Positions 5,021-8,000 of a stretch of 26,548 nucleotides of DNA are shown here, in pieces. Source of the stretch: a virus (lineage: Duplodnaviria; Heunggongvirae; Uroviricota; Caudoviricetes). Position 1 is the stretch's first letter. Each line of letters starts with the position of its first letter. The stretch lies in the IMG/VR virus record IMGVR_UViG_2681813161_000008; one strand, written 5' to 3'. The position numbers were made by a program.

Positions 5021-8000
5021 TGACGCTCATCACGCAGTTGTTTGACCCATCTTGTCATTGTGGAAAGGCCAACATCCATAGCTTTGGCGGCATCTGCCAC
5101 CGTGTATTTCTGGTCAACAACCAGTTGAGCGGATTCGCGTTTAAACTCTGCGCTAAAATTTCTTTTTTTCATTGGAGCACCTGTGTTGTTCTGAGGTGAG
5201 CATATCACCTCTGTTCAGGTGGCCAAATTCAGTGTGCCACTTCAGGTGCCGAACCTTCCTCCGGATATAATCTGTGATTCCCCAATCAACAGAACCAGAG
5301 GAGGTTCGGCATAAACATCAATGCACAACGACAGAATCGTCGGACGACCCACCACCGCTGAAATGTGCTTTCCGGTAAACGGCCTGAACTGCGTCATCAT
5401 GCGCATCAATTGCCGTACTCAACGCTTCCTGCGCCGCCAGTAATGCACGGCGTTCCAGGGTATCGAAGATACAGAGTCGGTGACGCAGCTCACGCGGAAG
5501 AATTGCCAGAACCGCAGGGATCAGTTTCTGAATTTTCTCCCTTTGCGCTTTCGTTTCACCTTTCAACCAACGGTGATAGATATTCTGCTGATTGTTCCAG
5601 TCCTTGCCTGGTACCAGAGGCAATTCGCCGCCCCCCTGCCGCAGATATTCTTCAGTAATTGCGTTAGCGACCCACGCCTGCCCTTTTTCGGCTGCCAGGG
5701 CTAACAGCACTGATTCGATGTGCTCATGCCTGATTTTCATGAATCACCTTCCCAGGTCGTTTTGCCTTACGATATTCGTCATAAACTTTGGGGTCGTACT
5801 GAAGTTCCCCGCCAGATGCCTCTTGCAGGCGCATCGCGCGACCTTCAGGAACCAGTTCCCCCCATGCAGCAATGCTTGCCAGCCTAACTCCTGCGGCATT
5901 GGCAAGCTTTGTTTTGCTGCCAAAAAACGCTATAGCATCAATTTTCAACATATCGAGCTCCTTAGATTTTCCTAAGGAAACTAGATCGTAGAGAAACCTA
6001 AGTCAAGAAAGATTAGAATTCCCTAATATGAAAAACGAAACCTTCGGTGCTCGCCTCTTACATAGGCGTAAAAAATTAAAACTGTCTCAGGCCGCATTAG
6101 GTAAGCTGGTCAAAGTGGCTCACGTAACAATTTCTCAATGGGAAAGAGATGAAACACAGCCGGCGGGGAAAAGATTATTCGCACTGAGCCAAGCGCTTCA
6201 GTGCTCACCGACTTGGCTTCTTTTTGGGGATGAAGATAAACAACCAGGCGAACCGATCCCGGATAATCAGCCAGCCATTCTGACAGAAGATCAAAAAGAG
6301 TTACTTCAACTGTTCGACGCACTGCCTGAGTCAGAGCAAAAGGCCCTGTTGTCAGAGATGCGTGCTCGAGTTGAAAATTTCAACAAACTTTTTGAAGAAC
6401 TACTCAAAGCTCGCAAAAGAAGCGCAAACAAATAATCCCCTTTTTTCTCCACACCCTGTAATAAAAAGCACAAACTTTCAAACACTTGTGTTTTTTACAT
6501 CAAAAAAACTTAGGTTTTTTATACATAAAATCTTGACTCCACGTCTTAGGTTATTCTAAATTCCATTCATCAAGACACCGCACGGTGTTCTCAGCAAACA
6601 GTTCCACTACCCCGGCGTTAAGGGGAAATGAGGTCAGCATGGATACTATCGATCTTGGCAACAACGAATCCCTAGTGTGTGGCGTGTTTCCCAATCAGGA
6701 CGGCACATTCACCGCCATGACGTATACCAAAAGCAAAACGTTTAAAACCGAAGCTGGCGCACGTCGCTGGCTTGCCAAAAATACCAGCTAATCCATTTAT
6801 TGGATTAATTCAATATTCTCGCTGTAGAGGTATAGTGAGGTGTACTGGCAATAGCGGACACTACCATTTGTTCTTTTTTTAAGCAGCCATCTGATGATAT
6901 TTTTCCCTGAAGGCTGCCGGGGAGATATTCCCCAGACGAGAGTGACGACGCTGACGATTGTAGAAAATCTCAATGTATTCCCGTATTACTGAGATGGCTT
7001 CATCCCGGTTATTAAAACGATAGTGGCTCAGGCTCTCATTTTTCAGCGTTCCCCAGAAGCTTTCCATCGGAGCGTTGTCGTAACAGTGACCTTTACGCGA
7101 CATTGATGTTTTCAGACCAGACTGCTCCTGTATGACCCGGTAATCGTATGCGCAGTACTGTGAACCTCGATCAGAGTGGTGGATTAGCCCGGCAGGTGGG
7201 CGCTGGCTCCTGAGCGCCATAAACAGGGCTTTACCTGTCAGCTCTTTTGTCATGCGCTCTCCCATGGCGTAGCCGACAATTTCGCACGTATAAACATCTT
7301 TGATGCCAGCGAGGTACAACCATCCCTCCTGTGTGGCAACATACGTCAGGTCCGCCACCCAGACCTGATTTGGTGCTGTAGGAGCGAACGTCTGGTTCAG
7401 CAGATTTGGCGCAACTGGCAGATTGTGGTTCGGGTTCGTAGTCGCTCTGAACTTGCGTTTCTGCTTACAGCGTAGCCTTAGCTCCTTACGAAGACGTGCC
7501 AGTCGGTCACGACCAACGATGATGCCATTCTCTGCCAGCTCCGTCTGGAGCCGCCGGGTTCCATATGTTTCGCGAGTGCGGATATGTGCCACCTTAATCT
7601 CCAGTTTTAGCCGCTCATCACTTTGTTTTCTGTCTGAGGGTTCATGCTGTACCCAGTTGTAATAACCGCTCCTGGATACACCAAATACCTGACACATCGC
7701 TTCAATGGGAAATTGTTGTCGCCATTGTTCGATTAACGCGTATTTTTCAGCGACTCCTGTGCAAAATACGCTGTTGCTTTTTTAATATATCTCGCTCAAG
7801 GCGAGCTTCATTTAACGCCTTACGCAGTTGCAGAATTTCAGATTCCAGTTCAGCCACCGTGCGGGAACCAGGAGTACCGAGCCCTTTTCTGGCGGCGGTA
7901 ACCCATTGTCCTAAAGTGCCTTCAGGAAGGGATAATCGGGAAGCGCCTTCACTGATCGAAAGTTGATTTTCAAGAACCGTTCTGACAGCTTCGGCTTTGA

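Follow-up and report, generated by a model that had tools for sequence, protein, structure and literature searches.

Why should a prophage whose operons have been cut short by insertion sequence (IS) elements still carry a complete immunity switch? The question is raised by a 26,548-nucleotide stretch of Caudoviricetes DNA (IMG/VR record IMGVR_UViG_2681813161_000008; the whole stretch is hereafter called the window), in which a repressor gene faces a cro-like gene and a CII-like gene at positions 5318 to 6435. The initial annotation described this module as a RacR/YdaS/YdaT-like switch, after Rac, a prophage in Escherichia coli K-12, and proposed that addiction-like selection, rather than neutral decay, had preserved its repressor. 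Judged from its sequence, the module is an ordinary, widespread prophage on/off switch, in which a Qin-type DicA repressor and DicC Cro protein are joined to a Rac-type YdaT. This DicA/DicC/YdaT mosaic very probably serves as the immunity switch of a lambdoid prophage that sits beside ybhA-modC in Shigella-type genomes. The main yield of the analysis is an annotation correction (i.e., DicA/DicC instead of RacR/YdaS), together with a small natural experiment provided by Shigella-type genomes. Addiction, a concept known from Rac and Qin, is extended here to a new chimeric member; the comparative data accord with it but fall short of demonstrating it.

Identity of the three genes

Reading of the open reading frames (ORFs) in the 26.5-kb window confirmed that all three genes are intact and uninterrupted at the positions initially given (5318 to 5740 and 5724 to 5951 on the minus strand, 6028 to 6435 on the plus strand). 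The module spans about 1.1 kb, and a 76-bp spacer separates the repressor gene from the divergent cro and ydaT genes.

The repressor (6028 to 6435, plus strand; 135 aa) consists of a P22 C2-like helix-turn-helix (HTH) domain and a short C-terminal helix domain, without an S24 peptidase domain. It matched the NCBIfam DicA model over its full length (NF007257; residues 1 to 135 of 135; 237.3 bits; cut-off, 101), and HTH_3 was its sole domain-level match in Pfam. In a sequence search of solved structures, residues 2 to 69 matched the N-terminal domain of P22 C2 (PDB 1adr; 1e-21), and BLASTP gave 62% identity to DicA of the K-12 Qin prophage. We rejected RacR as its identity, since BLASTP returned no match to K-12 RacR at E values of ≤10 and the protein passed the curated DicA model instead. 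An HTH-only DicA without an autocleavage domain has been described (PMC10448788). K-12 DicA represses dicC and dicBp, has no RecA site, and is countered by the antirepressor Rem (PMC3441716, PMC10448788).

The long-term ratio of nonsynonymous to synonymous substitution rates (dN/dS) of the repressor gene is 0.06. K-12 DicA is essential on account of dicB. Since the repressor belongs to the DicA family and not to that of RacR, the relevant K-12 precedent is Qin DicA, and the Rac repressor invoked by the initial annotation has to be set aside; dicB, on which the essentiality of DicA rests, is missing from the window. Once dicBF has been removed, K-12 dicA can be deleted although dicC stays (PMC10448788); thus, derepression of DicC alone is tolerated.

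The cro-like gene (5724 to 5951, minus strand; 75 aa; intact) encodes a protein of the DicC/P22 Cro type according to NCBIfam, Pfam, BLASTP, and PDB matches. It scored 158.3 bits against NCBIfam DicC (NF007282; cut-off, 130) and 49.7 bits against Pfam P22_Cro (3e-13; cut-off, 30.2), was 75% identical to K-12 DicC in BLASTP, and matched P22 Cro in the search of solved structures (PDB 1rzs; 2.4e-7). The gene shares 17 nt with ydaT, an overlap also shown by dicC and ydfX in Qin, and its long-term dN/dS is 0.53. YdaS was rejected as its identity because the score against Pfam YdaS_toxin (PF15943) was 20.4 bits, below the gathering cut-off of 30, BLAST found no match to K-12 YdaS, and the DicC model was passed.

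The third gene, ydaT (5318 to 5740, minus strand; 140 aa; intact), encodes a Rac-type CII-analogue transcription factor, as indicated by BLAST, Pfam, PHROG, and PDB matches. Its product is 96.4% identical to YdaT of K-12 Rac over 140 of 140 residues (BLASTP; 92.5% at the nucleotide level, with a dN/dS of 0.046) and matched Pfam YdaT_toxin (PF06254; 2.4e-11), PHROG 163 (CII-like activator; 1e-36), and PDB entries 8bt1 and 3c4r. YdaT is a functional analogue of lambda CII. The translated gene retains the DNA-binding residues H56/R57/W58 and the oligomerization/tetramerization residues L107/A110, which have been named as functional (PMC11879457). K-12 YdaT alone kills or filaments Δrac cells (PMC11879457; toxicity also in PMC11014345), and K-12 YdaS does not kill a Δrac host (PMC11014345). 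By analogy with this 96%-identical K-12 protein, the YdaT of the window would be toxic as well.

The Rac-like label thus stands for the architecture (i.e., a repressor facing a cro-like and CII-like operon, with operators between them) and for YdaT, while it fails for the repressor and Cro protein, whose alignment to K-12 RacR and YdaS revealed no BLAST similarity.

Operators and promoters

Three inverted repeats, spaced about 25 bp apart, occupy the 76-bp spacer. O1 (5959 to 5978; TCCTTAG-ATTTTC-CTAAGGA), which lies next to cro and is the counterpart of K-12 Oc, is a perfect 7-6-7 palindrome (TCCTTAG-N6-CTAAGGA); about 0.003 such palindromes would be expected by chance in the spacer (57 positions × 4^-7). 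O2 (5985 to 6004; GTAG-N6-CTAA) has one core mismatch, and O3 (6010 to 6029; TTAG-N6-CTAA), the counterpart of K-12 Oa, abuts the repressor start codon. A fourth site, OL1 (TTAGGTTATTCTAA; 6546 to 6559, within a 20-bp site at 6543 to 6562), was recognized by its core and lies between the hexamers of a PL/dicBp-like promoter (6533 to 6562, plus strand; TTGACT-18-TAAATT), which was found by a promoter scan and aligns with the K-12 dicA-ydfA spacer. In the window, exact copies of TTAG-N6-CTAA begin at 5962, 6013, and 6546 only, and a one-mismatch copy begins at 5988. Because the copies are confined to the two regulatory spacers of the module, the palindrome reported initially at 5959 to 5978, against which operator half-sites were to be mapped, is confirmed with its 7-nt arms and 6-nt spacer as one of three putative operators between the divergent genes.

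The four sites, in the spacer and at the leftward promoter, have the form of 20-bp inverted-repeat operators of the Oc type and are predicted to act as such. K-12 DicA binds Oc (TTGTTAGTCATAACTAACAA, i.e., TTGTTAG-TCATAA-CTAACAA; PMC3441716). In the alignment, O1 shares with Qin Oc the 7-6-7 geometry, the TTAG-N6-CTAA core, and the position next to cro, while the outer bases differ (TCC-TTAG here, TTG-TTAG in Qin), which probably confers a related but distinct immunity specificity.

A PR-like promoter for cro-ydaT was assigned at 5978 to 6006 (minus strand; −35 TTGACT at 6006 to 6001, 17-nt spacer, −10 TAGTTT at 5983 to 5978), overlapped by O2 and flanked by O1. Its promoter function is inferred from positional homology to K-12 dicCp (TTGACT-17-TATCTT). 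A generic sigma-70 scan left it uncalled, because its −10 hexamer agrees with the consensus at only 3 of 6 positions.

Both promoters vary among related loci. Within 6533 to 6564, a 10-nt patch (6535 to 6544) that takes in the last part of the −35 hexamer of the PL-like promoter and the spacer as far as OL1 is polymorphic at every position; the core of OL1 is invariant. The patch has 12 alleles among 26 haplotypes (natural alleles include TTGACTCCACGT, TTAACCCAACAC, TTGATCACCCTC, and TTGGCCGCCCAT), and further alleles occur in IMG/VR viral contigs and O157:H7 copies. In the PR-like promoter, segregating sites cluster in the −10 hexamer and spacer (5977 to 5989), with one in the −35 hexamer (6003). 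Variation is found in the promoters and not in the operators or repressor; one possible reading is recurrent tuning of promoter strength.

Mosaic junction at the YdaT-box

Where do the Qin-like and Rac-like parts meet? In Rac, YdaT footprints an inverted repeat over the ydaT start codon (ATGATTCATGAAAATCAA; PMC11879457), which we took as (T/A)TGATT-N6-AATCAA. In the window, a corresponding YdaT-box (GTGATTCATGAAAATCAG; 5731 to 5748, minus strand) also lies over the ydaT start codon; its core (TGATT-N6-AATCA) is exact and present in a single copy, and the two outermost bases differ from those of the Rac box. Alignment and BLAST showed that Qin-type homology extends through cro and that Rac homology begins at about 5746. 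The module is a mosaic whose join falls inside the YdaT-box.

The two halves occur separately elsewhere. The dicA/dicC half is found in PPompW and Stx2a prophage records (94%). In O157:H7 prophages and Stx2a/PPompW phage records (95 to 96% at the nucleotide level), it stands at the head of a dicB operon and is annotated as dicA/dicC, which supports a DicA-like function of the repressor. The ydaT half (94%) is present in induced Escherichia phages, annotated as cII. No phage record contained the complete three-gene combination at ≥80% coverage.

Comparative survey of related loci

Exact-sequence look-ups that took YdaT, Cro, YdfA, and Rha as anchors, with the repressor excluded, yielded 31 distinct Shigella-type loci from 30 assemblies. 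Anchoring a pattern search on the PL operator added 27 IMG/VR viral contigs containing the repressor gene. The repressor is 135 aa long in all 58, with no inactivating event. Both other genes are disrupted in several lineages: cro by three independent events (a nonsense mutation at 5801, +T at about 5905, and −C at 5858) and ydaT by two to three events (including −T at 5702 and −C at 5631). In the ydaT-frameshifted lineage (L018, L019, L065, L066, L068, L079, and L084), the repressor is intact at 100% nucleotide identity; it is also intact in L052.

The nonsense mutation equivalent to position 5801 in cro is carried by L005, L006, L009, L013, and L038; the +T insertion by L011, L034, L042, L043, and L073; and the −C deletion by L021. 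In these related genomes cro has suffered at least three independent knock-outs, with the repressor and, in most cases, ydaT still intact. Without cro, the switch would lose any flip to an anti-immune state.

The cro-repressor cassette is present in 751 of 5,426 complete E. coli genomes at ≥80% coverage. One assembly (GCA_002943855.1) contains two copies of the ydaT-cro-repressor module in two different prophages (L031 and L032); thus, a single repressor type can serve several prophages per cell. The integrase and excisionase genes are truncated or absent in related loci, which closes the excision escape seen for Rac (PMC11014345). The related loci also carry ipaH-type genes (LRR_TTSS and NEL domains) and dense IS1, IS600, IS629, and IS911 elements, from which we infer a source of the Shigella/enteroinvasive E. 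coli (EIEC) type. The module of the window is 100% identical to that of two Shigella/EIEC-type assemblies; GCA_042014305.1 and GCA_031670655.1 are examples of assemblies with such an identical module.

Remnants of the prophage around the module

On the ydaT side, everything downstream is replaced by a truncated IS911 (4118 to 5244, minus strand; terminal repeat read at 5200 to 5244), which ends at about 5244, i.e., 73 bp past the ydaT stop codon, and severs the rightward operon there. An IS1 element (about 3372 to 4139) lies beyond IS911 and cuts it. On the other side, a DUF1391 gene of the ydfA/ydaF type (6639 to 6791, plus strand; 50 aa; 90% identical to K-12 YdfA and YdaF; Pfam DUF1391 in related loci) is the first and sole surviving gene of the leftward operon before IS600 (6831 to 8099, minus strand). 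IS600 cuts that operon about 40 bp past the ydfA-like gene and separates the latter and the PL-like promoter from a DicF/KilS-like small RNA (sRNA) and the Rha gene.

What has been lost is shown by L001/L023, an intact relative with 97.8% identity across the module. Its ydaT side carries ydaU/ydaV-type replication genes, DUF977, QueH, hokD, rem, a Q-like gene, four tRNAs, and lysis genes; its opposite side carries Rha, YdaE, RecE, Gam, xis, and int and adjoins ybhA-modC. The window has lost DUF977, QueH, hokD, and rem as well as the replication genes and the Q-like gene. A tblastn search of the window found none of DicB, YdfD, KilR, Rem, HokD, YdaU/V, and Q, a set that is present in L023 (whose Rem is 67.5% identical to K-12 Rem). 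This set includes the other toxic effectors that DicA- or RacR-type repressors are known to silence (DicB, YdfD, KilR, and HokD). The initial annotation had replication, Q, and lysis functions replaced by IS911/IS1. The IS pair does adjoin ydaT, and replication and Q are gone; however, a holin fragment (2299 to 2487) and a tRNA cluster (2780 to 3090) of the same prophage persist beyond the IS elements, so the claim holds only in part for lysis.

The four phage tRNAs (2780 to 3090, minus strand) are Gly-TCC, Thr-TGT, Arg-TCT, and one with a CAT anticodon (Met by ARAGORN, Ile in RefSeq); the cluster sits between IS600 and IS1 and is 100% identical to that of the intact relative. Compared with L004/L007, in which the module is identical, two IS600 copies bracket an inversion of the DNA that runs from the holin fragment to Rha (window positions 1 to 9440 versus L004), which places a YdaE-like fragment (754 to 1041) and the holin/tRNA remnant on the "wrong" sides.

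No Rfam match to DicF reached the gathering threshold in the window. The DicF/KilS-like sRNA (8245 to 8295, plus strand) scored 28.6 bits against Rfam DicF (gathering threshold, 48) and is closer to Rac kilS, with about 90% identity to that region of K-12 Rac. The plus-strand stretch from 8517 to 8718, within the 5′ part of the ORF at 8479 to 9318, contains isrK (68.5 bits), a C4 antisense RNA scoring 78.6 bits, and a c4 a1/b1 target below threshold. Situated just upstream of the Rha/Phage_ASH gene or overlapping it, these elements constitute a P1/P7-style c4-ant antirepressor control module; the 279-aa Rha ORF probably starts later than the annotated position 8479.

Farther along, a different morphogenesis module of the contractile-tail-like kind occupies positions 11400 to 21300, with phage genes for baseplate, tail fiber, and lytic transglycosylase. 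IS66-family and IS2 elements interrupt this stretch, which shares 98.6% identity with EIEC/O121-type E. coli genomes. An ALIL pseudoknot (10915 to 11031, minus strand; 116 bits), the frameshift element of the IS3 family, lies inside an IS629-like copy.

Why the repressor persists

Homologous systems suggest how the switch would work. The repressor would bind the TTAG-N6-CTAA operators O1 to O3 and OL1 and would thereby shut the PR-like (cro-ydaT) and PL-like (ydfA) promoters. The −10 hexamer of the PR-like promoter (TAGTTT) is, however, weak by consensus, which counts against this scheme. YdaT, if made, would occupy the box covering its own start codon and so raise leftward-to-rightward transcription of the repressor, as it does in Rac. 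Since the repressor has no RecA-cleavable domain and the likely antirepressor, Rem, is deleted, there is no evident induction route, and the switch appears to be locked in the repressed state. Since IS elements have amputated both operons, the sole cis products still silenced are Cro, YdaT, and YdfA. The module would have stayed intact as a 1.1-kb target in a recently IS-shredded prophage, with the repressor probably under purifying selection besides. Such selection may act through harmful constitutive YdaT (i.e., addiction) or through immunity and silencing in trans, and the data fit both alike.

If addiction operates, the repressor is kept because it silences the toxic cro/ydaT pair, and its loss would be lethal unless ydaT were lost first. 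We regard this as possible, though short of probable. The toxicity of K-12 YdaT and the conserved key residues lead to the prediction, by analogy, that the repressor is conditionally essential through YdaT: the protein in the window is 96% identical to the one that kills Δrac cells (PMC11879457, PMC11014345), and tblastn found no other known toxic effector remaining in the window. The survey points in the direction that addiction predicts, although weakly, with the repressor undisrupted in 58 loci found independently of it and cro and ydaT disrupted. Truncation or absence of int/xis in related loci has closed the excision escape, and an analogous co-occurrence argument has been published for racR-ydaS (PMC5700373).

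Several observations weigh against addiction. The repressor remains intact where ydaT is frameshifted, at 100% nucleotide identity, and in L052. A toxin should be free to decay, yet ydaT is mostly intact and has a dN/dS of 0.046. K-12 dicA can be deleted once dicBF is gone despite dicC (PMC10448788). The toxicity of YdaT depends on the host, and an E. coli B derivative is resistant (PMC11014345). Five to six events with none in the 408-bp repressor gene give a P value of about 0.05 to 0.09 under a uniform rate, which is not significant, and the loci are phylogenetically non-independent; moreover, some indels lie in homopolymers (C6 at 5626 to 5631; another run at 5921 to 5926) and could be assembly errors in single genomes. 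The repressor gene has one segregating site in 408 bp, synonymous sites included. We rejected this near-zero diversity as evidence of purifying selection, since the synonymous sites are invariant too, which indicates that the copies of the cassette share a recent ancestor and not that purifying selection is demonstrable. The proposal of addiction rather than neutral decay thus keeps the intact repressor in every related locus, but the events are too few for significance, the repressor also survives where ydaT is frameshifted, and other genes of the remnant are intact as well.

That last point agrees with neutral persistence, in which a small target has so far escaped a recent IS expansion and selection is unneeded. 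We entertain this explanation tentatively. IS-free segments of 1.1 to 1.6 kb are typical of the window (2235 to 3370, 5245 to 6830, and 8100 to 9440), and the non-immunity prophage genes that are intact include Rha (279 aa), a YdaE-like gene, four tRNAs, and tail genes. Little time has elapsed, as the module is 100% identical in several other assemblies and divergence within the type is ≤1%, and the absence of repressor hits is non-significant. Chance alone fits less well with the four different IS junctions found in different lineages, at distances of 73 to about 250 bp downstream of ydaT and never inside the three genes, or with the three independent knock-outs of cro, the shortest gene, against none in the repressor gene, which is nearly twice as long.

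A repressor useful in trans, for immunity to homoimmune phages or for silencing a second prophage of the same type, would be retained whether ydaT is alive or dead, as observed. The immunity type is common (751 of 5,426 complete E. coli genomes, plus Stx2a/PPompW phage records), two prophages of a single related genome each carry a copy (L031 and L032), and in O157:H7 a dicB operon is under the control of this repressor type. We regard this explanation, too, as possible but short of probable. A second target is not demonstrable within the 26.5-kb window, and the retention of ydaT is left unexplained.

If the repressor is indeed conditionally essential via YdaT alone, this IS-bounded minimal module, with one repressor, one Cro, and one YdaT and without other prophage effectors, would be the cleanest natural system for two questions, namely, whether prophage CII-like regulators act as de facto toxins and whether such toxicity stabilizes repressors in decaying prophages. 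A debate on the Rac repressor and toxin is already open (PMC5700373 versus the Jobling letter, PMC5917428). A more elaborate scenario, which we think improbable, is that a Qin-type repressor captured a Rac-type host-toxic factor exactly at the YdaT-box, creating a chimeric repressor-toxin pair that cannot be shed by repressor loss. Hosts would then disarm it piecemeal, through recurrent cro/ydaT knock-outs and −35/−10 point changes in both promoters, and the 6535 to 6544 patch, with at least 15 alleles beside a near-invariant repressor, would be the trace.

Comparison with known systems

Among the closest known systems is DicA-DicC of K-12 Qin. The repressor and Cro belong to the same families (62% and 75% identity), the repressor is likewise 135 aa without a peptidase domain, and the 17-nt overlap between cro and the CII-position gene is alike. 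Both systems have three intergenic 7-6-7 operators and at least one at the leftward promoter, and in both a ydfA-type gene heads the leftward operon. In Qin, dicC is followed downstream by ydfX and dicA by the dicBF operon. In the window, by contrast, the CII-position gene is a full-length Rac-type ydaT instead of the 96-aa ydfX; dicB, ydfD, and rem are missing, and neither control of dicBF nor Rem is found; and the DicF-like sRNA is of the Rac kilS type, cut off from the promoter by IS600.

With RacR-YdaS-YdaT of K-12 Rac, the module shares an orthologous YdaT (96%), a YdaT-box kept over the start codon, and the common CI/Cro-CII architecture. The published idea of a "toxin-repressor" module with an essential repressor (PMC5700373, PMC5700377) applies to both. 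The window differs from Rac in that its repressor and Cro have no sequence relationship to RacR and YdaS, its integration site is ybhA-modC rather than ttcA, and ydaU/ydaV replication genes and kilR are missing. Finally, the repressor N-terminal domain (1e-21) and Cro (2.4e-7) match the solved structures of P22 C2 and Cro by sequence, whereas the repressor here has no C-terminal S24 autocleavage domain, the operator sequence is different, and the CII analogue is YdaT where P22 has C1.

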